Shown here one piece after another: positions 5,861-42,690 of a stretch of DNA of 57,180 bases. How positions within the stretch are numbered: position 1 is the stretch's first letter; each line of letters opens with the position of its first letter. The position numbers and the translations under genes were made by a program. Location: the NCBI GenBank assembly GCA_903842365.1, contig CAIMLU010000018.1, positions 1-57,180 of the forward strand, given 5' to 3'. Under the pieces are notes generated by a model that was not told the origin of the DNA, made no database searches, and saw nothing but the letters and a program-made list of their open reading frames with translations. The stretch comes from an uncultured bacterium (GTDB lineage: Bacteria; Patescibacteriota; Minisyncoccia; Phycocordibacterales; UBA6065).

Positions 5861-5900
5861 GCGTCCAGTGTGTTTAAGACACTGGACGCTTTTTCTTTTT
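5861..5900 (+). terminator. rho-independent terminator
   Basis: gcgtccagtgt / acactggacgc stem followed by tttttcttttt. Confidence 0.65.
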
Positions 5901-5928
5901 GTATATAAAAAATGGTACAATTACGGCC

Positions 5929-28612: not shown

Positions 28613-29581
28613 ATGGCATTTGTAGATGAAATCAATATACGCCTCAAAGCAGGCGACGGTGGTGATGGTGTTGTGCGCTGGATGCACGAACGTGGAAAGG
28701 AATTCATGGGCCCTGCGGGCGGCAATGCCGGCCATGGAGGTAATGTGTTTATCGAGGGTGTACGTGATATTGGCGCATTGTTCGCTTTTAGGAATATAAA
28801 AACACTTGAAGCAGAACGTGGTCGTGATGGTGGCAGGGATAGTATGTATGGACGTGCTGGTGATGATTTGATCGTCAAAATTCCTATTGGTTCAGTGGTT
28901 AAAAACCTTGATACTGGGATGGAGATTGAAATCCTCAAAGAAGGTGAACGTGTACAGATTCTCCGCGGTGGTGGTGGTGGTTTTGGTAATGAACATTTTA
29001 AATCATCAACCAATATTGTTCCTGAGCAATCAACGAAAGGTAAAATAGGCGATGGTGCCGATTTTCATATTGAACTTCGCTTGCTCGTCGACGCTGGTTT
29101 TGCTGGTTTTCCAAACGCTGGTAAATCATCACTCTTGAATGCACTTACAAACGCAAAGGCAAAAGTAGCGAGTTATCAATTTACTACGCTCGAACCCAAT
29201 TTGGGTGACATGTATGGGTTTATTCTTGCAGATATTCCAGGTCTTATTGAGGGTGCATCAGAAGGTAAGGGGTTGGGTCACAAATTCCTTCGTCATATTG
29301 CTCGTACGAAAACGATTCTTCACTGTATTTCACTCGAGAATGAGGACATAGCTGCTGCTTACAAAACAATTCGTGCTGAGTTGGAGGCGCACAGCCCAGA
29401 ACTTGCTGCAAAGAAAGAGATTATCGTCTTGACCAAGACTGATCTTGTTGACGAAAAGATATTAAAAACACGCATCAAGGAGGCAAAGAAATTGAATCCA
29501 GATGTTATGTATGTTTCTATTATCGATGATGAACAGGTAAAAGAGTTTAGGGATAACCTTATCAAGACTCTGAGGGTTTAG
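28613..29581 (+). CDS. obg: GTPase Obg/CgtA
   Basis: FVDEINIRLKAGDGGDG Obg fold, G1 GFPNAGKSSLLNAL, G3 DIPGLIEGA, G4 TKTD. Confidence 0.95.
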   Translation: MAFVDEINIRLKAGDGGDGVVRWMHERGKEFMGPAGGNAGHGGNVFIEGVRDIGALFAFRNIKTLEAERGRDGGRDSMYGRAGDDLIVKIPIGSVVKNLDTGMEIEILKEGERVQILRGGGGGFGNEHFKSSTNIVPEQSTKGKIGDGADFHIELRLLVDAGFAGFPNAGKSSLLNALTNAKAKVASYQFTTLEPNLGDMYGFILADIPGLIEGASEGKGLGHKFLRHIARTKTILHCISLENEDIAAAYKTIRAELEAHSPELAAKKEIIVLTKTDLVDEKILKTRIKEAKKLNPDVMYVSIIDDEQVKEFRDNLIKTLRV

Positions 29582-29596
29582 GTTGGTATTCGTGCG

Positions 29597-29625
29597 TTGC
29601 TTTTTCCATTCAAGTGGTGTATAGT
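29597..29625 (+). promoter_or_regulatory. sigma70-like promoter candidate for tRNA-fMet (TTGCTT-17-TATAGT)
   Basis: Hexamers at 29597-29602 and 29620-29625. The tRNA starts 12 nt downstream. Confidence 0.3.
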
Positions 29626-29637
29626 GCTTACCTACAT

Positions 29638-29708
29638 CGCGGGGTGGAGTAATAGTAACTCACGAGGCTCATAACCTCGGGACCCTGGTGCAAATCCGGG
29701 CCCCGCAA
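29638..29708 (+). tRNA. initiator tRNA-fMet (CAT), CCA not encoded
   Basis: Hand-folded cloverleaf. C1xA72 mismatch, A11:T24 pair, and G30G31:C39C40 in the anticodon stem. Anticodon loop is CTCATAA. The D-loop (AATAGTA) and T-loop (TGCAAAT) are atypical. Confidence 0.8.
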
Positions 29709-29909
29709 CAAGAAAAACAAGACACGCACAAGCGTGTTTTTGTTTTTCTTGTTGCGGGGCAGGAAAGCAAACTGCTTTGCTTTCCGACGGATTTGCAAGA
29801 CGGAGTCATGTATTCAGCCCTGTGAATACAGACGAGTCCGGGGAGGAAGTTCTTAATGAGCGAAGCGAATTTAGAAACTTGACCTCAAATCCGGGCCCCG
29901 CAACAAGAA
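29709..29909 (+). ncRNA. tRNA-3'-linked structured element, copy E1 (unclassified)
   Basis: Terminator-like hairpin 29706-29754. Antisense to the tRNA acceptor 3' strand at 29748-29760. 10-bp hairpin at 29762-29785. Antisense to the T-loop at 29788-29797. GACGGAG core. 24-nt exact copy of the tRNA 3' end at 29886-29909. A truncated second unit follows at 29910-29958. Confidence 0.5.
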
Positions 29910-30001
29910 GAAAAATCCCCTTTAGGGGATTTTTCGTTGCGTGGCAGGAAAGTAAACCATAACCATGTTTTTGGGATTAAGATGTCTTATCGTTGGTTCT
30001 A

Positions 30002-30030
30002 TTGAAAAAAAATGAAAAACGTATTAAGAT
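30002..30030 (+). promoter_or_regulatory. sigma70-like promoter candidate for tRNA-Thr(GGT) (TTGAAA-17-TAAGAT)
   Basis: Hexamers at 30002-30007 and 30025-30030. Confidence 0.3.
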
Positions 30031-30056
30031 GACCCTCGTTCCGTTTCAAGAAAAAA

Positions 30057-30132
30057 GCCGTTGTAGCTCAGTTGGTAGAGCACGTCATTGGTAATGACGA
30101 GGTCGCCGGTTCAATCCCGGCCGACGGCTCCA
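30057..30132 (+). tRNA. tRNA-Thr (GGT), CCA encoded
   Basis: Canonical 76-nt cloverleaf: GCCGTTG acceptor, AGTTGGTA D-loop, anticodon loop TTGGTAA, T-loop TTCAATC. Confidence 0.92.
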
Positions 30133-30330
30133 AATAAAAAACACACCTCAAGGTGTGTTTTTTATTTGGAGCCGTCGAGGACGCAAACTGCTTTGCGTCC
30201 GTGCTGGATTGAAAGACGGAGCCCTGTTTTTGTAAGACAAAAACAGGCGAGTCGGGGTCGGGAGTACTTAGTCCGCGCAGGGTGTATTCACCAGAGTAGA
30301 CTTAGTAACTCGTGACTAATCCCGGCCGAC
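30133..30330 (+). ncRNA. tRNA-3'-linked structured element, copy E2 (unclassified)
   Basis: Hairpin 30122-30177 includes antisense to the acceptor 3' strand plus CCA. 9-bp hairpin at 30179-30200. T-loop antisense at 30206-30213. GACGGAG core. ACCA-loop hairpin at 30282-30301. Direct copy aatcccggccgac at 30318-30330, and a further partial copy at 30362-30372. Confidence 0.5.
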
Positions 30331-30385
30331 TCCCAATAACAGTGAATCGAGAGGTAAGGGACCCCGGCCGACACACCGTCTTATT

Positions 30386-30414
30386 TTGCAGGGTATGCTG
30401 ATAGGTGATAGAGT
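30386..30414 (+). promoter_or_regulatory. sigma70-like promoter candidate for tRNA-Thr(CGT) (TTGCAG-17-TAGAGT)
   Basis: Hexamers at 30386-30391 and 30409-30414. Confidence 0.3.
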
Positions 30415-30430
30415 GATCGCGTTAATCAAA

Positions 30431-30503
30431 GCCACCTTAGCTCAGCTGGTAGAGCGACGGTATCGTAAACCGTAGGCCCCCGGTTCAAGCCCGGGAGGTG
30501 GAT
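30431..30503 (+). tRNA. tRNA-Thr (CGT), CCA not encoded, G1-A72 mismatch
   Basis: 73-nt cloverleaf with anticodon loop ATCGTAA and T-loop TTCAAGC. The acceptor is GCCACCT/AGGTGGA, which leaves position 1:72 unpaired. Confidence 0.8.
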
Positions 30504-30687
30504 CAAATAAAAATTCCCTTCAGTGGGAATTTTTATTTGAGCCACCTCAGAAAGCCAATCACTTGGCTTTCGTCCGAGCTTGAACGCCGGAGCGGGACCC
30601 ATATCACCAGATATGGGAGCGAGGCGGTGCCCAGCCCGAGACGAGCGACGGCGAGTTGAGAGGCGAGGGAAAGACCCCGGGAGGTGG
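30504..30687 (+). ncRNA. tRNA-3'-linked structured element, copy E3 (unclassified)
   Basis: Hairpin plus T-run at 30507-30537. Acceptor antisense at 30538-30548. 9-bp hairpin at 30550-30571. T-loop antisense at 30578-30585. GCCGGAG core. ACCA-loop hairpin at 30598-30617. Direct copy cccgggaggtgg at 30676-30687. Confidence 0.5.
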
Positions 30688-30693
30688 CTCTCA

Positions 30694-30726
30694 AAAAAAC
30701 ACTGCTTTTTAAAGCAGTGTTTTTTG
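30694..30726. terminator. bidirectional terminator (tRNA/element array versus helicase gene)
   Basis: aaaaaacactgcttt / aaagcagtgtttttt. Confidence 0.7.
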
Positions 30727-30730
30727 TTTT

Positions 30731-32224
30731 TTATTTATTATCAGGAACGAATGTAAGTGCACTGCCCTTTGATGAGCCACGACCAGTACGGCCGACGCGG
30801 TGAACGTATGTTTCGTAATCCTTAGGCACATCGTAGTTAATAACGTGTGTGATGTCCTTGATATCGATACCTCGTGCAGCAACATCAGTTGCAACAACGA
30901 CTTGTACTTCACCTGTAGTGAGTGATCTTACGGCGCTCATTCGTTCGCGGTTACGCATATCACCGTGAAGTGAAAGTGCTTTGAAACCACGCTTACGAAG
31001 TTCAACTCCTAAGTCTTCTACGTGGCGTTTCATTTCACGGAAGATAAGAACTTTCTTGAAATCGGCGGTCTTCAAGAGTTCATGAAGTTTTTCAATTCGA
31101 TCATGAGGACTTACTCGAACAACATCTTGATCAACATTTGAAGCGGTGTCGCGGGTTTTAACCGAGATATGAGCAGGCTCCTTGAGGAAGGTTGCGCAGA
31201 GTGCTTTTATTTCAGGTGGCATGGTTGCCGAGAAAAAGAGACTCTGACGTTCTTTTGGCATCTCTTTCAAGATACTACGAATATCATCAATGAATCCCAT
31301 ATCAAGCATTCGGTCTGCTTCGTCGAGGACAATGCTTCCGAATTTCTCCATTTTAATGTTTCCACGTTCGATCAAGTCTTTGACACGACCTGGAGTTCCA
31401 ATAACGATAGAGAAGCCACGTTCGAGATCGCGCATCTGTCTGTAGATGGGCATACCACCAACGGCAATAACACTGAAGAGGTGCATACCAAAGGCGAATG
31501 CACGAAATTCTGTTTCAATTTGTTGTGCAAGCTCGCGTGTAGGTGCAAGTACCATGACTTTGTGTCCTGGGTTTGCAAGTATTTTCATAATGAGAGGTAA
31601 GAGGAATGCCGCGGTCTTTCCTGTACCGGTGTTTGCAACACCGACAACATCTTTTCCTGTTATGACAGTAGGAATTGCCTGATCCTGAATAGGAGAAGGA
31701 ATCTTATAGCCCTTAAAGGTGATGTTTTTTAAAAGTTCAGGGTGTAAATTGAAATCAGCAAATGTGTGTTTTGGAACATATGCATCTATTTCAACATCCT
31801 TTGCTTTGTTGATGAAAAGTCGTTCTTCAATACCGTTGTGACGTGTTCCAAATGAACCACCTCCACGATGTCCTCCATACGAGGAACGACGGCTACCTCC
31901 GCCACCATAACGTGGACGAGGTGCATACGAAGAGAATGAAGGACGACGGCTAAAACCACCGCTGCGTGGTGCACCGCCAAAAGAAGCACTTGTGCTACGA
32001 GGAGCATATGAAGCGCTTGCTCCATATGACCGAGCAGCTGTTGGTGCACTTCCACTTCGAGGACTATAAGAAGAAGCACCAGCACTACGGGGAGCGCTGT
32101 GATCGCTTTTACTACGACTAAATGATGGGCCGTGACTTGATGTGCCACGACTAGGTTTCCTTGCCCCAGAAGGGAAAGGAGAGACGGAGGTCCTTACGAC
32201 CTTCCATGTTTTGGATTGATACAT
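30731..32224 (-). CDS. DEAD-box ATP-dependent RNA helicase with an N-terminal R/S/G-rich low-complexity extension
   Basis: Q motif GYKIPSPIQ, motif I ANTGTGKTAAF, DEAD, SAT and HRVGRTGR. The first ~130 aa are Arg/Ser/Gly/Tyr-rich. No internal Met precedes the Q motif. Confidence 0.9.
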   Translation of the reverse strand: MYQSKTWKVVRTSVSPFPSGARKPSRGTSSHGPSFSRSKSDHSAPRSAGASSYSPRSGSAPTAARSYGASASYAPRSTSASFGGAPRSGGFSRRPSFSSYAPRPRYGGGGSRRSSYGGHRGGGSFGTRHNGIEERLFINKAKDVEIDAYVPKHTFADFNLHPELLKNITFKGYKIPSPIQDQAIPTVITGKDVVGVANTGTGKTAAFLLPLIMKILANPGHKVMVLAPTRELAQQIETEFRAFAFGMHLFSVIAVGGMPIYRQMRDLERGFSIVIGTPGRVKDLIERGNIKMEKFGSIVLDEADRMLDMGFIDDIRSILKEMPKERQSLFFSATMPPEIKALCATFLKEPAHISVKTRDTASNVDQDVVRVSPHDRIEKLHELLKTADFKKVLIFREMKRHVEDLGVELRKRGFKALSLHGDMRNRERMSAVRSLTTGEVQVVVATDVAARGIDIKDITHVINYDVPKDYETYVHRVGRTGRGSSKGSALTFVPDNK

Positions 32225-32395
32225 TACGTATTGTTGTTTAGCCTGCGAGTATCATTTTTGCGCAAGCTTTCAACAAACGAAGCGACGTAATGATAGAATC
32301 GAAGGAGTATTTGATAACAAGAGCATACTAATACAAGGGGAGGGAAAAGTCAATGTGTGAGGTAAATCAGAGCTCTTTTTGGTGGGGTGGAGTGC

Positions 32396-32424
32396 TTGAC
32401 ATAGATGTATATTAGGTGTATGAT
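32396..32424 (+). promoter_or_regulatory. near-consensus sigma70 promoter candidate (TTGACA-17-TATGAT)
   Basis: Hexamers at 32396-32401 and 32419-32424, about 65 nt upstream of the 32489 ORF. Confidence 0.45.
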
Positions 32425-32488
32425 ACATAGGTAAATAGTACATTGTAAAACCAAAGTGTTTTGGTTGAGTTTGGAAGGAAATAAGTGA

Positions 32489-32893
32489 TTGACTTGCTGG
32501 CGCGTTGCCAAGCGAATCGTAGATTTCCAGGCTGCTGGTAATGCGATTAAAACCATCGGGGAAGAGTTGAAGGGTACGTTACAGGATTTTCTCATTACTC
32601 ATCCAGAGTGGGCCGGTTACGTACTCTGTTGTCCTCAAGATTATCCCCCAGAGGTTATTTTGCAGGTTGGTGTAAAAGCTGTCGATAATAAACGTCGTGC
32701 ATGCTCATCTTCGGTTGGTTTAACCTACGAAAATCTCACCGATGGGGAACTGACAATGTTTACTGGTTTCATGGAAAAGCATGTCGAATCGATCTTGAAT
32801 AAGGGTATGAAAATCCGCCAAGAGAAAGGAAGATACGGCGATGGTATTGTTTGTTATGTTTTTAAGCCCAACTTTGACTGCTTCAAGAAGTGA
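32489..32893 (+). CDS. hypothetical protein
   Basis: 134-aa ORF (TTG start in the track) followed by the terminator at 32902-32931. No homology recognised. Confidence 0.45.
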   Translation: MTCWRVAKRIVDFQAAGNAIKTIGEELKGTLQDFLITHPEWAGYVLCCPQDYPPEVILQVGVKAVDNKRRACSSSVGLTYENLTDGELTMFTGFMEKHVESILNKGMKIRQEKGRYGDGIVCYVFKPNFDCFKK

Positions 32894-32901
32894 TTCCTTA
32901 C

Positions 32902-32931
32902 AACCCGCATCACGAAAGTGCTCTGCGGGTT
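32902..32931. terminator. bidirectional terminator
   Basis: aacccgca / tgcgggtt stem with an inner cac/gtg extension. T-run on + and A-run upstream. Confidence 0.6.
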
Positions 32932-32947
32932 TTTTTATATATAGATG

Positions 32948-33127
32948 AGTGACGGGGTGCTCTCCCTCGGCTTTTTCCTCGCCGTCGCTCAGAAAAGCCT
33001 GGGCACCGCCTCGCTCCCACATCTGGTGATGTGGGTCCCGCTCCGGCGTTCGAGCCCCTTGCGAAAATGCCTTTTCGCACACTTGCGCAAATAAAAAACA
33101 ATCCAATGAAGGATTGTTTTGTATTTG
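32948..33127 (-). ncRNA. tRNA-3'-linked structured element, copy E4 (unclassified)
   Basis: Read on the minus strand. Hairpin 33080-33135 includes acceptor antisense at 33080-33093. 8-bp hairpin at 33060-33079. T-loop antisense at 33048-33055. GCCGGAG core. ACCA-loop hairpin at 33016-33035. Direct copy at 32948-32957. The core is near-identical to E3. Confidence 0.5.
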
Positions 33128-33201
33128 CGCAAGTGACGGGGCTCGAACCCGCAGCCTCTCCCGTGACAGGGGAGTGCTCTAACCAATTGAGCTACACCTG
33201 C
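33128..33201 (-). tRNA. tRNA-Asp (GTC), CCA not encoded
   Basis: 74-nt cloverleaf on the minus strand: GCAGGTG acceptor, anticodon loop CTGTCAC, T-loop TTCGAGC. Confidence 0.9.
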
Positions 33202-33297
33202 GTGTGGAAGTAATCTAACAGAAAAAGCTTTTGGAGGCAATTGGTTGTAAAACGTACAACAAACAACCCACAACAAACAACTTTCAGGAGAGGGGAA

Positions 33298-33559
33298 GGG
33301 TGGGAATCGGTCATAGATAATTCACTCGTCAGACACTCGTGAATTTCCGCGACCCCTCCCTACAGGAGCTGTACACCTTTTGGGTTGAGTACAATCTCAA
33401 AAGGTCTTGCAAAAGCTCCAAGTATTCGCTTTTTCACCTCACGCCCGAATTCTGGTGAATTCGGACTACGCTTCGCTCCGTGCGTTCCGGCTTTCGATTC
33501 CCACCCCCGACACCTATATACAAGACGACCCATGCTCTCGCATAGGTCGTCTTTCCATG
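33298..33559 (-). ncRNA. tRNA-3'-linked structured element, copy E5 (unclassified, longer variant)
   Basis: Read on the minus strand. A 21-nt continuous antisense to the tRNA T-loop, T-stem and acceptor 3' strand lies at 33493-33513 (versus 33559-33579). CGGAG core. ACCA-loop hairpin at 33445-33464. Direct copy gggtgggaatcg at 33298-33309. Confidence 0.45.
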
Positions 33560-33633
33560 TGTCGGGGGTGGGAATCGAACCCACGACCCCAGGCTTATGA
33601 GTCCTGTGCTCTAGCCAACTGAGCTACCCCGAC
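33560..33633 (-). tRNA. tRNA with CAT anticodon (elongator Met, or Ile2 if lysidine-modified), CCA not encoded
   Basis: 74-nt cloverleaf on the minus strand: GTCGGGG acceptor, AGTTGGCTA D-loop, anticodon loop CTCATAA, T-loop TTCGATT. There is an A31-G39 mismatch at the base of the anticodon stem. Confidence 0.82.
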
Positions 33634-33675: not shown

Positions 33676-35166
33676 ATGGGCTCAATCGTGTATACTAATA
33701 CGACAATGATTTCGAGACGATCAAGGACGGTTCTTTTACTATTTGTAGCAATATTTATTGCTCTTGTTCCTGTCGTCTCTGTGTTCGCAGATAAGACTAT
33801 TTTTTATCCAAGTGTCTGTGATGGTGATTGGCGCAAACCCGAAGAAGCAACCAAATCATTCAGCGTTGAAAAGAGTGATGATATCGATTCGTCAAACAGT
33901 GCTGAATCAAATGGTGTTGGTTCTCGCATTGTTTGTTCACATTTTTCGGATGCAGCACTCTCTGATTTAAGACCTATCTCAGTAAAACTTGAGCTCTCTC
34001 TTCGCCCAATTGGTGAGGGAAATACAGAGGCATCATCAACTATCTCTCGGCTTTTGAGCGATGTGACTGCGCATGCTTTTGCGGATGAAATCACACCATT
34101 AGGATTAGAAGGTGGCGTATCTCAAGTCGCAATAACAGAACCTATTTCAACAACACAGGAGAATGCCGTGGAAAATGTAACGCCTTCCGTTGTTGATCAA
34201 TCAACAGCAACCACATCAACCGTTGAGGAGGTGATTGTCCATGAGGTATCAACAACCTCGATTGATGCTGTGTCTACAAGCACTCCTGATGAGCATTTTG
34301 TTCCAGTAGAAGAAATAAAAGAAGCAACTTCAACTGAGGTCGGGTTGGCAACAACGACTGTAGAAGGTCAAATTGCATCCCACCCCGATATTGAGGCTCA
34401 GATCTCTTTTGATGAAGGTGCATCGTGGAACTTTATTGGCGCTGCTACGATTACAAAACCAGAACGTCTCACTTTCGACGTCCCTCTTTCACATTTTGAG
34501 ACAGGGGAAGATCTTTCCCGTGTATCGATTCGTGTTATAAAAACAGCCGGTACATCCGAAGTCCTTTTTGATTCAAGCGCCCTTTCGATTGGATTTGCAA
34601 ATCTCGAAGGCGATGCACGATCGGTTGTAACACGAAATTTGGAATACATGACACCTGATTTAGCAAACAACACAATCGTTTCTATGATAAACCTGTCGAG
34701 GTATAGCATTATGGGTACAACTGATTCAAGTGGTTCTGGATCACTTTGGGTTTATGATGATCAGGCATCACCTGCAACATCAACCTTTAGAATTGCCTCA
34801 TCAACTACTTTTTCTACAGGATTTTCAGTTGCAATTAAGGACGGTATTATTTTTTGGCTTACTGACAGCAAGACCGTGTATGGGTTTAGGTTGAGTGATG
34901 GGCGATTCCTCATCCCGCTTTCGCATGATGTGCTTGAAACAGGTGAAGTTAATTTCTCATTCTTTGAAACGAAATGGAAGGTAATATCACGTGGGGGAAG
35001 TATCTTTTTTTCGACGCTCGAATCTGGCGAGCTGGCAGGGGATGATGACGGAGTTCTTCGTGAATCTTTTTATCATAAAAATATCGAACCCAATTTAACT
35101 GTGGAGGCAAAGACTGATATGGAACGGTTTGGTGTAACGGACGACACTGTCCCTCCTGAAAGATGA
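33676..35166 (+). CDS. secreted/anchored hypothetical protein (first gene of the surface operon)
   Basis: 496 aa. Signal or anchor is MISRRSRTVLLLFVAIFIALVPVVSVFA (alternative start ATG at 33706). Contains an acidic, T/S/E-rich linker. No homology recognised. Confidence 0.65.
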   Translation: MGSIVYTNTTMISRRSRTVLLLFVAIFIALVPVVSVFADKTIFYPSVCDGDWRKPEEATKSFSVEKSDDIDSSNSAESNGVGSRIVCSHFSDAALSDLRPISVKLELSLRPIGEGNTEASSTISRLLSDVTAHAFADEITPLGLEGGVSQVAITEPISTTQENAVENVTPSVVDQSTATTSTVEEVIVHEVSTTSIDAVSTSTPDEHFVPVEEIKEATSTEVGLATTTVEGQIASHPDIEAQISFDEGASWNFIGAATITKPERLTFDVPLSHFETGEDLSRVSIRVIKTAGTSEVLFDSSALSIGFANLEGDARSVVTRNLEYMTPDLANNTIVSMINLSRYSIMGTTDSSGSGSLWVYDDQASPATSTFRIASSTTFSTGFSVAIKDGIIFWLTDSKTVYGFRLSDGRFLIPLSHDVLETGEVNFSFFETKWKVISRGGSIFFSTLESGELAGDDDGVLRESFYHKNIEPNLTVEAKTDMERFGVTDDTVPPER

Positions 35167-38100
35167 TTATGAGTATTCAACGTTTTATCCAAAAGACACT
35201 CTCGTGCTTACTTGTTGCAATGCTTGTTCTTGCTTCAGTTTTTTCTGATGCTTTTTTTATTGTTCCTCATGCAGATGCTGCCTTAAATCCAACACAAAGA
35301 GATTACGCGTTGACTATAGGGCCATCTATTGGTTCCACAGCGGCAAACTACGTTTATAGTACTTTTTTTAATCCTATTGGTTCAGGTACGTACTTTTTAA
35401 TAAAGCGTCTCAAGGTTAATTCAATTGCACTTGGTGCTGCAACCTTTCAAGATCTTGATGTGAGGCGAATTACAAATACATCGGGAGGGACGCAAGTGCT
35501 CGCGGCAAATATTCCAAAGAAAAATACAGCGTCATTAGATAGTGTTGCGGATGTACGGTCTAATCTTGGTACAACAGGCGTAACTTTTGTTGGATCGACT
35601 GATTCGAGGATTATTTCAACGGTAGCAGCAGCGGCAGCTGGTGTTTCGTATGGAAAAATGGAAAAGAATTTTGATGATTCTGAAAAACTTATCCTTGCTC
35701 CTGGTGAGGGTATAGCTCTCTACCAAACGGCTGCGGGTAGTGCAAACCAAGATATCAGTTTAACCGTTGAGTGGACAGAAAGCGTCGTAGCACCAACTTC
35801 ACAGAACGAATATTCGTTGACGTACACTCGCGTTGCGAATGCTGCAGGGGTGAATTATGTGTACGATTCTTTTTTTAATCCAGGTTCATCTGGAAATGCT
35901 GTTGTTGTAAAAAGTATTCGCGCTGACGTTGTTGGTATTGGCACTGCAACTTATTCAAATAACGTTTATCTTCAAAAAATAAGCGCTGCGTCAGCAGGTA
36001 CGCAAATTGCGACTACGAATATACCAAAGAAAAACAGTCTATCTGCAAACTCTACCAGTGAGGCACGTTACCTGGGTGTAACCGCGACTCTTTTAAGCAC
36101 GAGCACAAACTCTTCGTACATACGCATTATTCCTCCTGGACTCGCCAACCAAGCAGCGTCGCGTGAGGTTGTGTTTGGTGTAAATGATGAAAAAATAATT
36201 TTGAAGCCGAACGAAGGGCTCGCCCTTGTTTCATCCGCAGCGGGTAGTGCAAACCAAGTTGTTAAATTTACAATCGAGTGGCAGGAAGTTCCCCAGGGAT
36301 CCGCTTCTGGAGCACAGGGTGGATACTTCTATACGTTTCCTAGGGTTTCTTTCACCCCAACTGCGGGACAGGCATATAATTCTTTTTTCAATCCTTTGGG
36401 ATCAGGTAAGCACGTAACAATTAAGAGGATATATGCATCCGCAACCACCTGGGCTGGTGCTGCATACAATCAAATCAGTGTACGTAGAACAACGGCTGCA
36501 TCTGGTGGTAATGTAATACCGGTAACTAATATTACAAAGAAGCACGTTGATACTGGCAACTCGAGTATGCAATTTAGTACAAATGCTCCCACGATAACGT
36601 GGGCGGGTACAGCTGCTATGCGCATTGCAGCCATGACTGGTCCTGGAGCGCCGGGTCAGCGCAATGGTGAATTAGAGGTTTATTTTGGTGATAATGAACA
36701 GCTCGTCCTTGCCCCAGGTGAAGGTATTGCGCTCTATAGTGAAGTCACAGGTAGCGCAAACCAGATGGTGCTTTTTTCCCTTGAGTGGACCGAGAGCGTT
36801 TCTTTGCCGGTAGCACAAGGTGAATATGTCGCATCAATTGGGAACGTGTCTGGCTCAACTGTTTCGGGATACAATTACGCATCTTTTTTTAATCCTATTG
36901 GTTCAGGGAAGACATCGATTATTAAACGTGTTGGCTTTTCTGTTGATGCTGTAAACACTGCTCGCTATGTTCCAATAACTCTTCAGAGGATTACAGCGGT
37001 TTCTGGTGGAACACTCATTGCTACAACTAATTTAACTAAAAAAAATAACACATCATCGATTTCATTGATGACGGTGCGAAGTACTGGCGTGACGGCAACT
37101 CTCGCAGGGAACACTGATTCACGTATCATGAGTGCGATTACACCAGGCACAATATCAAGTGTTACAAACGACCAGCGTTCAGGAAAAATGGAATACATTT
37201 TTTCAACAGATGAACAGCTCGTTCTTGCTCCAGGTGAAGGTGTTACTTTGCGGCAAGAAGCTGCTGGGGACGCTGATTTTAGGGTTCGTTTAAATATTGA
37301 ATGGGCTGAAACAGCAATAGTTCCAAGCCCTAAAGGTGAACTTATTGCTTCGTTCGGTTCAATGACGGGTAGTTTGACCTCGGGATATGTTTACAGCTCT
37401 TTTTTAAATCCAGTCGCATCTGGCAAGGTGTATCTTGTTAATCGAATTGGTCTCCATGCCACACGTGTTGGCGCTGCAACATCACCAGTGTTTCAGCAGG
37501 TGGTAATACGTAGGATTACAAGCGCGTCAGGAGGTACCCTTGTTGTTCCCGCAAATATTCCTAAAAAAATATCAACAACAGCAGCGAGCGGTGCTGATCT
37601 CCGTAGAGGTTCAACGGTGACTTATTCAGGGGTTACTGGTTCACGTATCTTCAGTTTGTCTGCACCAGCGACAGTGGGCGGAACGAGTAGTGGGCATCAT
37701 TCTCTTGTTCCATCTGGTGATCAGATTATCCTTAAACCAGGCGAAGGAGTCGCGCTTTACCAAGAGAGTGCTGCAGGTGATACAAACGTAAGATTTTTTA
37801 TGACAGTTGGATGGAGTGAAATGGCGATATCTCAATCCGCGTATAGATTTTTCAGTAATACAGATAATCTTGCTGCATCTACGCCTCTTGCTCTTGCAAA
37901 TACCTTGGCAATAGCGCCAAGCATAAATGCACCTTTTAGGTTGCGCATGGTTCTTGACGTTAATGGTTCTAGTTTGGTTCAAAATCAAGACTCATTCAAA
38001 CTTCAATTTTCCTCAAGGGTTGGTTCATGTGACGCTTCCTTTGTAGGTGAGGCGTATACTGATGTGACAAATGCATCGGTTATTGCATGGAATGATAATG

Positions 38101-39152
38101 CATCCCTTGTGACTGGTGCTCAGGTTGCTCCAACATCTACAGATCCGCAGAGTGGTACAAAAACAAGGGTGTACGAGACGTATCAGGAGGCAAATTCTTT
38201 TACAAACGCATCATCAACATCAATTTATGATGGGCAAAGCGGTGTGTGGGATTTTTCTCTTGTAGATAATGGTGCACCACGTAACACTTCGTACTGTTTT
38301 AGAGTTGTTCGAAATGATGGCAGCACCCTTGAATCGTATTCAATTGTCCCAGAAATTATTACGGCACCAGCTGCGAATACACTTCCAGTAGCTTCTGGAA
38401 TTTCGATAGACTCTGGTGCAGCAAGTATTAACTTAATTGAAGGAACAACCAAGGCAGTTACATGTTCTGGTACCGTGACTGATAACAATGGTTTTGCTGA
38501 TATCCAATCAGTGACTGGAGATTTGTATCGCACCAGCCTCGGGACTTCTTCGCCGCTTGATATTAACAACCACTATCGCGTTTCTGGTAACACTCAATGC
38601 GTACCTTCTGCCGGTTCGGGATCAAGCGAAACGTATTCATGTCTTTTTCCAGTGTGGTTCCACGCTGAGCCGACCGATGTTGGTTCTCCTAATAGTGCTG
38701 ATACGTGGTCATGTTCAATGACACCTGTTGATAGTGTTGCAACAGGAACCCCTGCGAGTGGTTCGATAGAAATGGCATCGCTCTATGCGATTGATGTTAC
38801 GCCTTCGATTTCATACGGGACGCTCTCACCGAGCACAAATACTGGCTCCCTAAATGCGACAACCACGGTTACAAACACGGGTAACACAACAACAAACCTT
38901 GCGCTTTCTGGTGCAAATATGACAAGCGGTGGAGGTGCTATTGCGGTCGGTAGTCAAAAATATGCTTCATCCAACTTTGTTTATACATCTGGTGGTGTCG
39001 CGCTTACCACGGTCCCGACGAATCTTCCACTGGGACTTGCAAAAAAAGTTATTGCAACAACAACCTCTCCAATATATTGGGGGATTGGTGTGCCGAATGG
39101 TACACGCACTGGTGCGTATTCAGGTTCAATAACATTTACAGCTGGACCTTAA
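35163..39152 (+). CDS. giant secreted repeat protein (5 x ~170-aa module, a jelly-roll-like domain, and 2 Ig-like C-terminal domains)
   Basis: 1329 aa with a signal peptide ending PHADA. Five internal repeats. The C-terminal ~260 aa are paralogous to the next gene. ATGA overlap with the upstream gene. Confidence 0.85.
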   Translation: MIMSIQRFIQKTLSCLLVAMLVLASVFSDAFFIVPHADAALNPTQRDYALTIGPSIGSTAANYVYSTFFNPIGSGTYFLIKRLKVNSIALGAATFQDLDVRRITNTSGGTQVLAANIPKKNTASLDSVADVRSNLGTTGVTFVGSTDSRIISTVAAAAAGVSYGKMEKNFDDSEKLILAPGEGIALYQTAAGSANQDISLTVEWTESVVAPTSQNEYSLTYTRVANAAGVNYVYDSFFNPGSSGNAVVVKSIRADVVGIGTATYSNNVYLQKISAASAGTQIATTNIPKKNSLSANSTSEARYLGVTATLLSTSTNSSYIRIIPPGLANQAASREVVFGVNDEKIILKPNEGLALVSSAAGSANQVVKFTIEWQEVPQGSASGAQGGYFYTFPRVSFTPTAGQAYNSFFNPLGSGKHVTIKRIYASATTWAGAAYNQISVRRTTAASGGNVIPVTNITKKHVDTGNSSMQFSTNAPTITWAGTAAMRIAAMTGPGAPGQRNGELEVYFGDNEQLVLAPGEGIALYSEVTGSANQMVLFSLEWTESVSLPVAQGEYVASIGNVSGSTVSGYNYASFFNPIGSGKTSIIKRVGFSVDAVNTARYVPITLQRITAVSGGTLIATTNLTKKNNTSSISLMTVRSTGVTATLAGNTDSRIMSAITPGTISSVTNDQRSGKMEYIFSTDEQLVLAPGEGVTLRQEAAGDADFRVRLNIEWAETAIVPSPKGELIASFGSMTGSLTSGYVYSSFLNPVASGKVYLVNRIGLHATRVGAATSPVFQQVVIRRITSASGGTLVVPANIPKKISTTAASGADLRRGSTVTYSGVTGSRIFSLSAPATVGGTSSGHHSLVPSGDQIILKPGEGVALYQESAAGDTNVRFFMTVGWSEMAISQSAYRFFSNTDNLAASTPLALANTLAIAPSINAPFRLRMVLDVNGSSLVQNQDSFKLQFSSRVGSCDASFVGEAYTDVTNASVIAWNDNASLVTGAQVAPTSTDPQSGTKTRVYETYQEANSFTNASSTSIYDGQSGVWDFSLVDNGAPRNTSYCFRVVRNDGSTLESYSIVPEIITAPAANTLPVASGISIDSGAASINLIEGTTKAVTCSGTVTDNNGFADIQSVTGDLYRTSLGTSSPLDINNHYRVSGNTQCVPSAGSGSSETYSCLFPVWFHAEPTDVGSPNSADTWSCSMTPVDSVATGTPASGSIEMASLYAIDVTPSISYGTLSPSTNTGSLNATTTVTNTGNTTTNLALSGANMTSGGGAIAVGSQKYASSNFVYTSGGVALTTVPTNLPLGLAKKVIATTTSPIYWGIGVPNGTRTGAYSGSITFTAGP
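35280..37832 (+). repeat. five tandem divergent ~510-nt coding repeats (residues 40-890 of the giant protein)
   Basis: Each unit has Y-x-Y-[SD]-S-F-[FL]-N-P-x-G-S-G-K...[IV]-K-R, then V-R-R-I-T-x-x-S-G-G-T, N-I-[PT]-K-K, L-x-L-x-P-G-E-G-[IV]-A-L, G-S-A-N-Q and [IV]-E-W-x-E. Unit boundaries fall at about residues 40, 212, 381, 550, 722 and 891. Confidence 0.85.
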
Positions 39153-39222
39153 AATAAAATCCATCTGTGGATAACACAATTGATAGTAGATATGATAAAA
39201 TAGAAACGTAATTAATAAATAA

Positions 39223-40134
39223 ATGACTAAAGTACTTTTTAAATCTCGCATTGAAGCAATCATCGCAAGCTCAATTATACTTGTTGGTGTTATTGCCTTT
39301 GTTGCAAATGTCGCAGCTGACGCGGTCTCAACATCGGTCACGGTATCAAACGCTGCACCTGTGGTGAGCGGTGTGACCTTTAATAGTGGAGCAGCAATAA
39401 CGTTAACCGAGAACACCACTCGAACTGTTTACGCAACTTCCACCGTAACTGACGCAAACGGTTGTTCAACAATCGCTGCTGTTTCAGCTGACTTCCATAG
39501 AAACGGTATTGCAACGAGCTCTTGTAACACTATTGGTCAGGCAAACAATAGTAACTGTTACCCAGCGGTGACATGTACAGTTGTTTCTGGAACCTGTACT
39601 GGAGGATCTGACACTGCTGCTGATTATGTCTGTTCTACTGCTCTTCAGTACTACGCTGATCCTACAGACTCAGGAACATACGCTGCTCAGACATGGACTG
39701 CAGACATTGCAGCTGGTGACGGTGTTGCAACCACAAGTGGCTCTGGACTTGCCGAAGTTAATACTCTCAAGGCTCTTGATGTCACAGCTTCTATGAACTA
39801 CGGAACTCTTGCTGCCGGATCAAACACCGCTGCAGTGAACTCAACAACAACTGTTACAAATACAGGTAACAGTACAATGGATCCTCTTATCTCAGGTACT
39901 GATATGACAAGTGGTATTAACACATTGACTGTTGGAAACCAAAAATACGCCTCATCAACATTTACGTATGCAACAGGTGGTACCGCTCTCTCAACAACCC
40001 CTACAGCGGCTGCGATCAATCTCGCAAAACCAACAGGTGCAGCTGTTACAGGTAATGTGTCATGGGGTATCAACGTGCCTAACGGAACTGTTCCAGGTAG
40101 TTACAGCGGAACAAACACCTTTACAGCAAACTAA
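39223..40134 (+). CDS. secreted surface subunit, paralog of the C-terminus of the giant protein
   Basis: 303 aa with an N-terminal hydrophobic anchor or signal. Colinear with residues ~1072-1329 of the upstream protein (NAAPVVSGVTFNSGAA.. versus NTLPVASGISIDSGAA..; TTTVTNTGN; GNQKYASS; WGINVPNGTVPGSYSGTNTFTA versus WGIGVPNGTRTGAYSGSITFTA). Confidence 0.8.
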   Translation: MTKVLFKSRIEAIIASSIILVGVIAFVANVAADAVSTSVTVSNAAPVVSGVTFNSGAAITLTENTTRTVYATSTVTDANGCSTIAAVSADFHRNGIATSSCNTIGQANNSNCYPAVTCTVVSGTCTGGSDTAADYVCSTALQYYADPTDSGTYAAQTWTADIAAGDGVATTSGSGLAEVNTLKALDVTASMNYGTLAAGSNTAAVNSTTTVTNTGNSTMDPLISGTDMTSGINTLTVGNQKYASSTFTYATGGTALSTTPTAAAINLAKPTGAAVTGNVSWGINVPNGTVPGSYSGTNTFTAN

Positions 40135-40188
40135 TCTCTTAGAGGTTTCAAGGTTCCGATTCTTGAAACGTAATGTAATTTCCCTCAC

Positions 40189-41100
40189 GTGAAAAAAACC
40201 AACTTTCTATTTGTTATCGGAGTCATTCTATCCGCTTGTGTGCTTCCTCAAAGCGCACAAGCGGGTTTTGGCGTTTCTCCAGGCCTTGTTTCAGAACAGA
40301 ACCTTGTTCCCGGAGCACGCCTTGAACGTACGATTTATCTTGTTCAGGCTGATAATAATCAATCACTCGATGCTAAGGCGTCGGTGGATAGTGGATCAGC
40401 AAAGGAATTAAAGAACTGGGTTTCATTTGTACCGGGATCTTCATTTACTATTCCTGGCGGTGTGCAACAGTATCCATTAAAGATCGTTATGGTGATTCCA
40501 AGCGATGCAGAACTCGGTAAGTATACTGGTTCAGTTACAATAAACACGGTTCCACCAAAATCAGGTGAACAGATAACGGTTGCACTTGCCGCAAGGGTAA
40601 ATATAGACCTGTCGATCGGCAACAATGTTGTGTCTGATTTCTCGGTTCGTTCAATGAAAATTCTTGATGTCATTGAATCAGAGAACCCAAGGGTTGTATT
40701 TGATATAGCGAATATTGGAAATGTTCCGGTTGCTCCCGACGGAGCATCGTTCGAACTCTTGAATAAGTATGGTGATTTGAGGCTCGGGTACGCTGATGGT
40801 GATTTTACTGAAAAAGTTTCTTCATTTAGTGATAAAAAAATAACAGTAGATTTTCCTGTTGATTTTAAGTTAAGTGAAGGTGAATATTGGGGATACGTTA
40901 AGGTGTATAAGCAGGGAAAGGTAGTCGCTGAACTTAAGACTATCTTCAACGTAAATCCTGGATCATTCTTTGTGCGATATAGCACATCGATTGTTGTTGC
41001 TTCATTACTCGTCTTGATACTTGGGGTATTCGTTGTAATGCGAAACCGTAGAATCTCTCGGCTTAAATTAGAGCAGGGAAATGCAACACCTGTCGTTTAA
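40189..41100 (+). CDS. cell-surface protein with two beta-sandwich-like domains and a C-terminal TM anchor (DUF916/CARDB-NEW3-like)
   Basis: Signal peptide ends SAQA. GFGVSPG start, FDIANIGNVPVAP (CARDB-like N-x-G-N), and a C-terminal helix IVVASLLVLILGVFVVM followed by RNRR. Confidence 0.6.
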   Translation: MKKTNFLFVIGVILSACVLPQSAQAGFGVSPGLVSEQNLVPGARLERTIYLVQADNNQSLDAKASVDSGSAKELKNWVSFVPGSSFTIPGGVQQYPLKIVMVIPSDAELGKYTGSVTINTVPPKSGEQITVALAARVNIDLSIGNNVVSDFSVRSMKILDVIESENPRVVFDIANIGNVPVAPDGASFELLNKYGDLRLGYADGDFTEKVSSFSDKKITVDFPVDFKLSEGEYWGYVKVYKQGKVVAELKTIFNVNPGSFFVRYSTSIVVASLLVLILGVFVVMRNRRISRLKLEQGNATPVV

Positions 41101-42094
41101 GTATTGTGTGTTTATTGTGGCATTAATGGCGCTCTTTTTTCCAAGCGCCCTTTTTGCTACGTCAGTTGTTTCAGTTTCGTTAACGGTGCTTCCTTCTACG
41201 GCATGTTCGGACGGTATTGATAATGACGGTGATTTGAAGATAGACTATCCAAATGATCCTGGTTGTTTGTCGTCAATAAGTGTGTCTGAAGTTGACCCCA
41301 TTGTTTCTCCACCGAGCGGTGGTGGGGGAGGGGGAGGTGGGTATTCATCTTCAAATAGTGTGTCACCAATACTTGGCACAGGGAGGGCTGTTATTTTAGG
41401 GACATCATTTCCTAACGCTCAAGTCGTAGCGCTTGTTGATGGGGTGCAAAAATCAACAAGCACCACGCTAAGTAACGGTTCGTTTTCTATATCAGTCCAT
41501 AATATAGAACCAGGACTAAGGTCTTTTTCGGTGTATGCAATAGATGCTCTAAAGGTAAAAACTGCTTCTGTTTCAGTTTCAACAACTGTGAACGAAAATA
41601 CTGTGACAAACATAAGCGGTATTGTGTTGTCGCCGACGTTATCTGCCGATAAAACAGAGGTAAAAAAGGGGGGTACAGTACTTCTTACCGGTGTTACTGC
41701 TCCATTGCAGACGGTCTTTATTGAAATAAAATCAAATACAATATCAAAGACCATAACAACTCTTTCAAATAAGACTGGTGCATATTCTCTATCCTTAGAC
41801 ACAGGGACACTTGATTTGGGTTCCTATGCAATAAAGACGTACTGCGTAGATGGTAATAAACATGGACCATACAGTAGGAGTGTTGGTGTTGTTGTTGGCT
41901 TGAAAAATCTTTTCGCATTTACTTGTGGAAGTCGTGCTGATGTCAACGGTGATTGCAAAGTTAACCTCGTTGATTTTTCAATGGTTGCATATTGGTACAA
42001 GCGAAACAATCCACCGATAAGTGTTGATTTGAATGGGGATGGTAAGATAAGTTTAGCTGATTTTTCGATATTAGCATTTAATTGGACTGGGTAA
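41081..42094 (+). CDS. secreted dockerin-domain protein with Ig-like domains
   Basis: Signal peptide. CSDGIDNDGDLKIDYPNDPGC Asp-rich Cys-bounded motif. G8 linker. Two Ig-like segments. C-terminal duplicated Ca-binding dockerin repeats DVNGDCKVNLVDFS and DLNGDGKISLADFS. Confidence 0.72.
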   Translation: MQHLSFKYCVFIVALMALFFPSALFATSVVSVSLTVLPSTACSDGIDNDGDLKIDYPNDPGCLSSISVSEVDPIVSPPSGGGGGGGGYSSSNSVSPILGTGRAVILGTSFPNAQVVALVDGVQKSTSTTLSNGSFSISVHNIEPGLRSFSVYAIDALKVKTASVSVSTTVNENTVTNISGIVLSPTLSADKTEVKKGGTVLLTGVTAPLQTVFIEIKSNTISKTITTLSNKTGAYSLSLDTGTLDLGSYAIKTYCVDGNKHGPYSRSVGVVVGLKNLFAFTCGSRADVNGDCKVNLVDFSMVAYWYKRNNPPISVDLNGDGKISLADFSILAFNWTG

Positions 42095-42690
42095 TGAAGC
42101 GCATATTTTTTATTATTGGAATTGGACTCGTGTTACCTCTGCAGGGTGTCTTTGCTGCTGATGCGTCTTTTTCATTTCGTATTCCCGAAATGGTAATGGT
42201 TGGGATTCCCTCAAGACTTACGCTCTTACTTGATCCTCATGGTGATTCAATAAATGCTGTATCAGGATCTGTTGAAATCGTGGGATCAGCAAGTATCAGG
42301 CGAGTCAGTACAAGCTCATCAATTATTCCACTGTGGGTTTCTGGTCCAATACAATCTTCATCATCAATTGAATATGAAGGAATTATTCCTGGTGGTTTTG
42401 ATGGTGTGTACAGTGTCTCGGATCAGGATTTGAGGCCAGGATCAATGCTCTCATTTGAGATTATTACGAATGATGCTACCCCTGTAATCATCAGATCTCA
42501 CAATACTATTTATTTAAATGATGGAAAGGGAATTGGAATCCCTACACCTGATCAGGCATCTATTATTAACCCAATATTTCCACAGAGCGATAGTTCGAAT
42601 TTATCGGTAGTACGTAATTCAATTTTTGCATGTGGTATAATTCTCTCATTATGGTTTCTTCGAATTTTTTTCAAAAGGCGAAATATGTAA
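42094..42690 (+). CDS. cohesin-like domain protein with a C-terminal TM anchor
   Basis: Signal MKRIFFIIGIGLVLPLQGVFA. The beta-rich domain has a pattern similar to the cohesin of the next gene. C-terminal helix IFACGIILSLWFLRIFF. TAATG overlap with the upstream gene (the track start at 42082 is TTG). Confidence 0.55.
   Translation: MKRIFFIIGIGLVLPLQGVFAADASFSFRIPEMVMVGIPSRLTLLLDPHGDSINAVSGSVEIVGSASIRRVSTSSSIIPLWVSGPIQSSSSIEYEGIIPGGFDGVYSVSDQDLRPGSMLSFEIITNDATPVIIRSHNTIYLNDGKGIGIPTPDQASIINPIFPQSDSSNLSVVRNSIFACGIILSLWFLRIFFKRRNM

Follow-up and report, generated by a model that had tools for sequence, protein, structure and literature searches.

Tyrosine-integrase islands and prophages integrate in the 3' part of tRNA and transfer-messenger RNA (tmRNA) genes, at the so-called T-loop sublocation used, for example, by P4-like elements. 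Here we describe a family of much smaller inserts in the same part of these genes, found in a stretch of 57,180 nucleotides (nt) from an uncultured member of the Patescibacteriota (contig CAIMLU010000018.1 of assembly GCA_903842365.1; the whole stretch is called the window). The inserts are named R1 units and the five copies in the window E1 to E5, while other contigs and loci carry L numbers. R1 units resemble the tRNA-integrating islands in their T-loop-to-3'-end insertion, in the replacement copy that they supply, in the direct repeat left by the displaced gene end and in their use of tmRNA. Unlike those islands, they measure 140-270 bp instead of kilobases, have neither an integrase nor any open reading frame (ORF), occupy at least 19 tRNA types within a single family, and carry both an antisense of their target and a conserved structured RNA.

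Element-encoded RNAs of a comparable kind are the bridge RNA of IS110 and the seekRNA of IS1111 and, more loosely, the exon-binding-site guides of group II introns and the omega RNA of TnpB/IscB. As with bridge RNA and seekRNA, R1 combines a structured RNA complementary to the element's own target with varied segments set in a common scaffold. In contrast to them, no IS110-type (DEDD/Tnp) or other recombinase is present in R1 units or in the window, and the R1 antisense is long (10-20 nt) and paired in cis to a sense copy, any guidance by it being putative. Where bridge RNA has two loops, R1 shows a single antisense tract beside a three-way junction; since donor and target do not differ in sequence in R1, this tract might suffice for the two.

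Miniature inverted-repeat transposable elements (MITEs) share with R1 units their shortness, lack of coding capacity, multiple copies, presence/absence polymorphism and dependence on factors acting in trans. However, R1 units begin with C56... and finish with ...GYGRC, ends that form no inverted repeat; their direct repeats are of variable length (10-127 nt), integration is site-specific in RNA genes and regenerates the gene, and the internal fold covaries. No autonomous parent element of R1 was found. Retrozymes and R2-derived non-autonomous elements depend on known ribozymes (hammerhead or hepatitis delta virus-like) and on a reverse transcriptase (PMC4918200, PMC3414825); they too are small, non-coding, found in tandem copies, co-transcribed with or embedded in host RNA genes and centred on a structured RNA, but neither a known ribozyme nor a reverse transcriptase was detected for R1. 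In kind, R1 units are closest to tRNA-integrating islands and MITE-like derivatives, and in logic to IS110 bridge RNAs and group II introns, although each of these groups has defining features that R1 lacks.

Five units in the window and their empty sites

The first-pass annotation of this locus had described tails of one layout directly behind five tRNA genes, each tail matched to its host. ARAGORN and Rfam tRNA matches confirm the six tRNA genes of the window, five of which bear an R1 unit, and all of the tail coordinates that were checked hold. The tails are indeed discrete segments, but they are not appended after the gene: each unit, 188-269 nt in length, is inserted between T-loop nucleotides 55 and 56 and begins inside the gene at C56. 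The tRNA's present nt 56-73 are the first copy of a repeat, and what had been called the terminal copy is the second. In the tRNA sense, the tails run from an A-run, GC hairpin and T-run through an antisense of the acceptor strand (anti-acceptor), a small hairpin (hairpin iii), an antisense of the T-loop and T-stem (anti-T) and a core with CGGAG to the direct copy.

The first three units lie on the plus strand. E1 (type A, 195 nt, 29691-29885) occupies the tRNA-fMet (CAT) gene at 29638-29709, whose nt 56-73, from 29691 on, are its first repeat copy. It is made up of a copy of C56-A73 plus 6 nt (29691-29714), a terminator hairpin (29715-29751), the anti-acceptor (29752-29760), hairpin iii (29761-29785), the anti-T (29788-29797) and two arms of the core, Pa/Pb (29798-29841) and Pc (29842-29885); its trailer sequence is AAACAAGACACGC. 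The second repeat copy (29886-29909) has the same 24 nt as 29691-29714 and is the true tRNA 3' end in the empty allele described below. E2 (type A, 206 nt, 30112-30317) lies in tRNA-Thr (GGT; 30057-30132, C56 at 30112) and comprises copy 1 (30112-30132), terminator (30133-30166), anti-acceptor (30167-30177), hairpin iii (30178-30200), anti-T (30206-30213), Pa/Pb (30214-30255) and Pc (30256-30317), followed by a decayed terminal copy (30318-30339). E3 (type B, 189 nt, 30486-30674) lies in tRNA-Thr (CGT; 30431-30504, C56 at 30486), with copy 1 at 30486-30502, terminator at 30503-30540, anti-acceptor at 30541-30548, hairpin iii at 30549-30571, anti-T at 30572-30585, Pa/Pb at 30586-30627, Pc at 30628-30674 and the terminal copy at 30675-30690.

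The remaining two units are on the minus strand. E4 (type B, 188 nt, 32958-33145) is inserted in tRNA-Asp (GTC; 33127-33201, C56 at 33145) and contains copy 1 (33128-33145), terminator (33088-33127), anti-acceptor (33080-33087), hairpin iii (33060-33079), anti-T (33048-33058), Pa/Pb (33006-33047) and Pc (32958-33005), its terminal copy being CCCCGTCACTC (32947-32957). E5 (type C, 269 nt, 33309-33577) is inserted in the elongator tRNA-Met (CAT; 33559-33633, C56 at 33577). It has copy 1 (33560-33577), a weak hairpin (33513-33559), a continuous 20-nt antisense of nt 73-54 (33493-33512), a core (33435-33492), an extra domain shared with the tRNA-Asp element of locus L021 (33309-33434) and the terminal copy GATTCCCACCC (33298-33308).

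A consensus scan for Rho-independent terminators recognized the first hairpin at 29719-29740 in E1 and at 33120-33095 in E4, as well as a terminator downstream of E3 (30693-30726; 30694-30725 in the scan), while E2 and E3 have similar terminator hairpins as judged by eye; E5 and the minimal units of L021 have no strong terminator. Hairpin iii, of 9-10 bp, is limited to E1-E4, in line with the four copies annotated at first. Its loop (AACUGCUU, or CUGC/UCAC with closing A-U pairs) is conserved at 29761-29785, 30178-30200 and 30549-30571 and recurs in many unrelated family members, such as L028, L043, L054, L071, L076 and L090, and it may be a protein-binding site or a tertiary contact. The cores of E3 and E4 are almost the same, including one compensatory Pb pair, even though their hosts are tRNA-Thr (CGT) and tRNA-Asp; E1 and E2 share another core type and E5 has a third. 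Near-identical cores at different tRNAs, with three types in one genome, thus point to one scaffold reused with different tRNA-matching arms.

That each tail is tailored to its host was examined with a matrix of cognate and non-cognate pairs, and the matches proved far above chance. The longest direct copy of the last 30 nt of the tRNA was 10-18 nt in its own tail against 5-9 nt in the other tails, and the longest antisense match was 8-20 nt against 5-8 nt. The tRNA-Leu gene, annotated as having no tail, showed neither a direct copy nor an antisense in this matrix.

Further contigs of the population were reached through the DEAD-box helicase gene that separates E3 from E4. One of them, L002 from a sister sample, is the same as the window over 29560-30750, except that exactly 29691-29885 are missing and that an N-run scaffold gap stands at the E3 terminator. 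Its fMet gene reads ...CCTGGTG|CAAATCCGGGCCCCGCAACAAGAA|GAAAAATCC..., and E1 is therefore a 195-nt unit between two 24-nt repeats that start at C56. Both the insertion architecture and the filled/empty polymorphism are seen here in the assembled contigs. Comparison of orthologous loci gave a concordant picture. In syntenic Paceibacterota/Nomurabacteria metagenome-assembled genomes (helicase 58-65% identical) the same tRNAs are followed by plain terminators or by the next gene, with no covariance-model match in these loci, and the Met-Asp spacer is about 34-90 nt long against 358 nt in the window.

Remains of older elements lie downstream of two of the units. Behind E1, positions 29910-29958, compared with 29715-29775, hold a second terminator, a degenerate anti-acceptor and half of hairpin iii (GTTGCGTGGCAGGAAAGTAAACC), and this relic is present in the empty allele too. 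Behind the terminal copy of E2, positions 30344-30374 hold what is left of an older type-B core, its 3' end, together with a separate tRNA-end copy, similar to the E3/E4 sequence '...GAGAGGCGAGGGA...CCCC'. Such relics are what repeated insertion at a live T-loop would produce. Orthologous tRNAs can also carry different subfamilies, as in L021, a relative of the window organism, where a minimal 137-nt unit that has neither terminator nor anti-acceptor is present in 2.4 tandem copies. Tandem arrays of 1.4-2.4 copies are found in the family.

The family, its RNA fold and its antisense

For a wider search, a pattern was taken from E2-E4 (GGTTCRA, 66-96 nt, TYGAAMGMCGGAG, 14-44 nt, CGAGKCSG), which in the window matched only the E2-E4 sites. 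A metagenome scan with it returned at least 120 loci. Among the 120 matches listed, 108 lie directly after an ARAGORN tRNA (19 types), three are in the T-loop of a tmRNA gene and two are at contig ends. The three units in tmRNA (ssrA) are at L031:3583-3979, L045:610-999 and L072:8219-8638. In 83 of the 120 matches listed, the 3' part of the tRNA recurs exactly over 11 nt or more, a feature outside the requirements of the pattern; the repeat lies 150-246 nt downstream (median 182) and nearly always starts at C56. The boundary reads GGTT|CGAATCC... in the gene and ...GTGAC|CGAATCC... or ...GAGGC|CGATTCC... at the unit end. Repeat length ranges from 10 to 127 nt with a peak at 18-21 nt, which corresponds to C56 to N73/CCA, and the minority of 51-127 nt belong to tandem arrays of 1.x copies. 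Across the family, units are about 140-270 bp long (the smallest 137 nt). Apart from those holding nested islands, no unit was seen to bear an ORF and no repeat partner was found beyond about 370 nt. Some ten other contigs among those examined have units in two or more neighbouring tRNA or tmRNA genes; tRNAs close to an occupied one in a contig often have no unit.

A viral origin of the family was considered and rejected: three pattern scans of viral contigs gave 190 loci, of which 188 were tested and only L146 has true matches to the covariance model, and two loci of the first scan, made with a looser pattern, proved on reading by eye to be chance matches in coding sequence. In a related species, the tRNA-Gln at L005:19217-19400 is followed by a terminator and, about 165 nt downstream, by a 20-nt copy of its 3' end; because this terminal copy is present without any match to the R1 model, the tail possibly represents a second family. 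In the same locus the tRNA-Thr (CGT) at L005:14890-14945 is followed after just 30 nt by a 24-nt repeat of its 3' end, perhaps a scar.

The first-pass annotation had recognized no known RNA family in the tails, and Rfam 15 scans, at the gathering threshold and at E<=10, bear this out: they returned only tRNAs and chance microRNA-like hairpin matches, with no IS110-type, ribozyme or other Rfam family matching the tails. A covariance model, as that annotation had proposed, was built from 45 cores, mostly from other genomes and without E2 and E5. It recovers exactly the five sites and nothing else in the 57 kb: E4 (32955-33059, 74.3 bits), E3 (30574-30678, 72.7 bits), E1 (29787-29894, 56.7 bits), E2 (30203-30325, 51.9 bits) and E5 (33301-33503, 34.7 bits, E=5e-6). 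Within 620 kb of metagenome loci it matches 83 sites, and the extra matches in the same contigs are again just downstream of tRNAs and in the tRNA sense.

Column statistics describe the core, of about 100 nt, as a three-way junction of P1, the Pa/Pb arm and Pc. P1 is formed by the antisense paired with C56 onward and is followed by the junction strand AAM. In Pa, G-M-C pairs with G-K-C with A-U/C-G covariation, enclosing a GGA...GA internal loop with tandem G-A and the variable hairpin Pb, and SGK is the junction strand between Pa/Pb and Pc. The closing pair of Pc, G92-C192, directly adjoins C56, so the last base of the unit (end consensus ...GYGRC) stacks on the first base of the repeat. Over 81 model-aligned members, 95.8% of the pairing cells are complementary (shuffles, 70.5%), both partners have changed in 11 of 13 pairs, and covariation scores 0.62, whereas shuffles reach 0.17 and slid controls no more than 0.085. 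The tRNA-sense strand has the more stable fold in 56 of 57 units (mean -11 kcal/mol, p=6e-11) and, for the core alone, in all 57. This bias indicates a functional single strand of that polarity, which would most simply be RNA.

All members with the canonical 55|56 junction carry the antisense of nt 56-65, and its pairing with the copy in the tRNA is nearly all Watson-Crick. At positions where tRNA copy and terminal copy disagree, the antisense sides with the former in 106 cases and with the latter alone in 6; decay therefore falls on the terminal copy. The closing helix with the terminal copy, as annotated at first, does exist in young units; it is not maintained, since the antisense tracks the tRNA's own copy. 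Behind the G that is paired to C56 come two bases complementary to the two nucleotides just before the junction in the tRNA. These covary with their partners: AA stands against T54-T55 in most members, CA against T54-G55 for the fMet hosts of the window and L341, and CC against GG in L064. In the sequences compared, then, the antisense follows its host up to and including two nucleotides across the junction. The L064 variant (L064:3611-3716, minus strand) couples the same core with an antisense of GGCACAAA, in which the very 3' end of tRNA-Arg (CCT) runs into the trailer; its repeat is only CACAAA and its junction is shifted to that place, between G71 and C72. The antisense may thus act in a guide-like manner, as a specifier of the junction. 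An origin by snap-back or palindromic duplication was also considered; it fits near-perfect palindromes and not the conserved hairpin iii at the boundary of acceptor and T-stem.

How R1 units might move

In our view, held with moderate confidence and for the family as seen in Patescibacteria-like contigs, the tails are probably miniature, non-coding, non-autonomous integrative elements of Patescibacteria tRNA and tmRNA genes that regenerate the gene and carry a conserved RNA module. The unit begins with its own copy of nt 56-73, by which the gene stays intact, usually supplies an intrinsic terminator, and continues with the antisense of nt 73-54 and the core, while the displaced original 3' end stands directly after it as a decaying direct repeat. 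Of the three readings offered at first, that of miniature elements which target the T-loop and regenerate the 3' end is the one favoured by the filled/empty pair and the empty orthologous sites, and further by the 55|56 boundary in nearly all family members, the decaying downstream copies, the nested relics and the tandem arrays. Movement would involve a circular or unit-length intermediate, whose junction ...GYGRC|C56-N73 would recombine with the identical stretch of a cognate tRNA gene with catalysis by an enzyme whose gene lies elsewhere in the genome. RNA of the antisense and core, made by read-through from the tRNA promoter, may help to recognise or synapse target and donor. Two pressures could uphold the tailoring, as the first copy has to yield a functional tRNA and the antisense has to keep its complementarity to that copy.

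Several points weigh against this reading. Instead of a pre-insertion site, the empty allele might reflect loss of the unit by deletion between its 24-nt repeats or, less likely, an assembly path through them. Conservation at TYGAAMGMCGGAG and CGAGKCSG is partly built in, because the search pattern required and so imposed these parts of the consensus. The elements have no evident promoter of their own and transcription would therefore need read-through of the tRNA terminator, and most units sit behind a strong terminator on whose read-through their RNA would depend. Base pairing of the antisense to a sense copy in the RNA would be unusual for a guide. No transcript, circle or excision product of R1 units was observed, and no recombinase for their movement was identified. 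Pfam scans of the 45 ORFs of the window found no integrase, transposase or reverse transcriptase, in agreement with the first-pass annotation, and no recombinase either, and a tblastn search of the window for a serine recombinase was negative.

A bolder form of the preferred reading, which we put forward tentatively as a possibility and not as a probable outcome, is that R1 serves as an address label, its three-way-junction scaffold and antisense of nt 54-73 either programming an enzyme in trans or being catalytic themselves, so that ...GYGRC is joined to the P1-base nucleotide in the matched gene.

The strongest competitor is protein-only recombination, in which R1 units would be cargo-less derivatives or hitch-hikers moved by a resident recombinase such as the large serine recombinases (LSR) of these lineages, the repeat and trailer being an attP mimic and the antisense and core an accessory site or cargo. 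We judge it unlikely, although the LSR family, whose proteins have about 516 amino acids and target tRNA 3' ends, is abundant in these lineages. More than 4,489 homologs were counted; the top 120 are 62-90% identical, and the roughly dozen of these with a source name are labelled mostly Paceibacterota, Parcubacteria or Minisyncoccia. No LSR relatives were found in viral contigs. The LSR gene converges on and overlaps the 3' end of an opposite-strand tRNA in every locus inspected (hosts Thr-GGT, Thr-CGT, Leu-TAG, Glu-CTC and Gly-TCC), and its C-terminal consensus LSLILEPxxGIEP is the reverse translation of T-loop and acceptor. The genes examined are at L121:86-1645 (minus strand), L326:10001-11548, L329:10001-11560, L335:10001-11587, L339:919-2457, L340:10001-11611 and L341:168-1721. 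Members 86-88% identical differ in their tails and therefore probably sit at different tRNAs.

LSR islands and R1 units have the same target genes, an inverted att-like architecture and a habit of co-residence and nesting. Both occur in L339, L340 and L341, and a crossover at the tRNA 3' end would yield a repeat from C56 to N73/CCA; moreover, the E3 antisense fits the terminal copy (C73) and not the tRNA (A73). The LSR junction, however, has a core of 3-6 bp at the extreme 3' end of the tRNA and not at 55|56, and LSR islands encode their enzyme. They also bear a 29-nt P arm, AAATARGTTCKRGCSGAGTACAATAGRGA, with the look of a pseudo T-loop-to-acceptor segment and also given as AAATARGTTCKRGC...CAATAGRGA; a motif search allowing up to 7 mismatches found it in LSR loci and not in the window or at R1 junctions. 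The sites are at L121:9422-9456 and 1985-2015, L326:9605-9730, L329:8637, L340:9666 and 4138, and L327:96. In each locus, P, core and about 100 nt of the LSR 3' end recur as an inverted, attP-like copy upstream of the LSR gene; LSR elements do carry such an att-like copy beside the gene.

Three matches without an adjoining tRNA, in L085, L038 and L121, have a cognate tRNA with matching C56-N73 at 1.5, 4.6 and 9.7 kb upstream, respectively. In L121 an intact LSR abuts the tRNA and in L085 an LSR remnant is present, so that LSR genes stand inside R1 units. These C56-N73-bounded regions were considered as autonomous LSR parents and rejected: the L121 island possesses a separate attL and attR that share 6 bp (CACCAC) at the outermost 3' end of the tRNA, as well as the conserved P arm, while L085 and L038 show only degenerate P-arm-like stretches by eye, under the threshold of the motif search. 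On these grounds we take the three islands to be distinct elements lying within R1 units, directly behind the first repeat copy. Nesting of this kind implies a common target of LSR and R1 and not that LSR moves R1. Protein-only recombination also sits poorly with the many LSR loci that have no R1 copy (for example L326-L338) and with units from three subfamilies at five or more different tRNAs of one genome, and it leaves the covarying sense-strand fold, the junction covariation and the junction shift in L064 unexplained. A role of LSR in moving R1 is nevertheless possible. A tyrosine-recombinase overlap model was also rejected: identity starts sharply at C56 with unrelated left flanks, so that nothing points to a 6-8-bp overlap within TTCGAAT.

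Some further features of these islands were seen. The 4.6-kb island in the tRNA-Ala R1 unit of L038 (L038:2529-6299) encodes a DNA methylase and a Z1/ResIII-type ATPase but no recombinase, a cargo that looks like defence. Two loci, L326:9400-9510 and L121:2140-2235, share a conserved G+C-rich hairpin region (CGCCCTCGCCCCGTTYCCGC...GGGCGGAAACGGGGCTCGGTCGGGC; about 90 nt) at the distal end of the recombinase unit, possibly another structured element. The tRNA-Thr (GGT) beside the recombinase at L326:11490-11775 (minus strand) is split in its anticodon loop by about 210 nt, probably a group I intron, and because of this interruption it is missed by ARAGORN.

A viroid- or retrozyme-like RNA is a much less probable alternative. 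The three-way junction would then be a ribozyme that cleaves and ligates 5' of the P1-base nucleotide, reverse-splices into the T-loop of the cognate tRNA and enters the genome through reverse transcription and recombination. Its geometry is inviting, as the junction is exactly where Pc stacks on P1, with G92-C192 adjoining G9-C56, and the antisense pairs on both sides of it. As a circle, the unit would be a rod plus junction of 137-270 nt, the tandem arrays with a truncated last copy resemble rolling-circle products, and transcription together with a gene for host RNA has a counterpart in R2 and the non-autonomous elements derived from it (PMC3414825). Although the topology is like that of the hammerhead three-way junction, the CUGANGA...GAA core of the hammerhead is absent and no model of that or another known ribozyme matches, even at E<=10 in Rfam. 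There is, in addition, no reverse transcriptase among the 45 ORFs of the window, no circular or permuted contig was seen, the conserved loops look like protein-binding tandem G-A motifs, and there is no experimental hint of catalysis.

We find it just as hard to credit that the tails are host-beneficial 3'-trailer RNAs, kept by selection as a maturation switch, as a decoy for tRNA-targeting toxins or integrating elements, or as a terminator or insulator. Their very high density (five of the six tRNAs in the window), the terminators they supply, an acceptor/T-like closing helix that would mimic a tRNA minihelix and the conserved RNA structure would suit such a function. Their distribution, however, is that of selfish DNA: presence varies within one population, close relatives lack the units, subfamilies differ at orthologous tRNAs (L021 and the window), terminal copies decay, relics are nested, and neighbouring tRNAs in the same contigs often have none. 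The switch or decoy suggested at first finds no support here as a host function, even though a functional sense-strand RNA structure is strongly supported. Finally, the suggested primer-binding site of a retroelement fails, because in four of the five copies the antisense runs on into the genomic trailer (CAAGAA, TCAAAT, CAAATA and CATGG in E1, E3, E4 and E5) and not into CCA.

Neighbouring genes and significance

Elsewhere in the window, a 698-residue protein with TrwB/VirD4-type coupling-protein and HerA-like ATPase domains is encoded at 5899-7995 (plus strand) among glycosyltransferase genes, which hints at DNA-transfer machinery. Large plus-strand ORFs of 496, 1329, 303, 303, 337 and 202 amino acids fill 33676-42690; only that of 337 matches Pfam, with dockerin and Ig-like domains, and the group probably encodes cell-surface proteins.

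The R1 family, which is widespread among ultra-small bacteria of the Candidate Phyla Radiation (CPR), appears to be absent from Rfam 15 and from the literature searched, in which no prior description of R1-like elements was found; the only lead, a study of archaeal tRNA introns and CPR rRNA introns (PMC10714607), does not describe R1. With at least 81 members and strong covariation, the family is sufficient for Rfam curation and for structural work. As its units are protein-free and only 140-270 bp long, targeting by an element that lacks its own recombinase becomes a directly testable question. If the antisense sets the junction, as one variant suggests, R1 would be a compact natural system for programmable insertion, and if the address-label idea is right, it would be natural, programmable, RNA-guided and gene-regenerating integration with no protein in cis, distinct from IS110 bridge RNAs, group II introns and CRISPR-associated transposons.

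Units of this kind also confound the annotation of tRNA flanks and islands, because duplicated tRNA 3' ends are normally read as integrase scars. For the bacteria that carry them, the inserts are a sizeable and unannotated part of very small genomes, and the islands nested within R1 units amount to several layers of parasitism on the same few bases of a tRNA.

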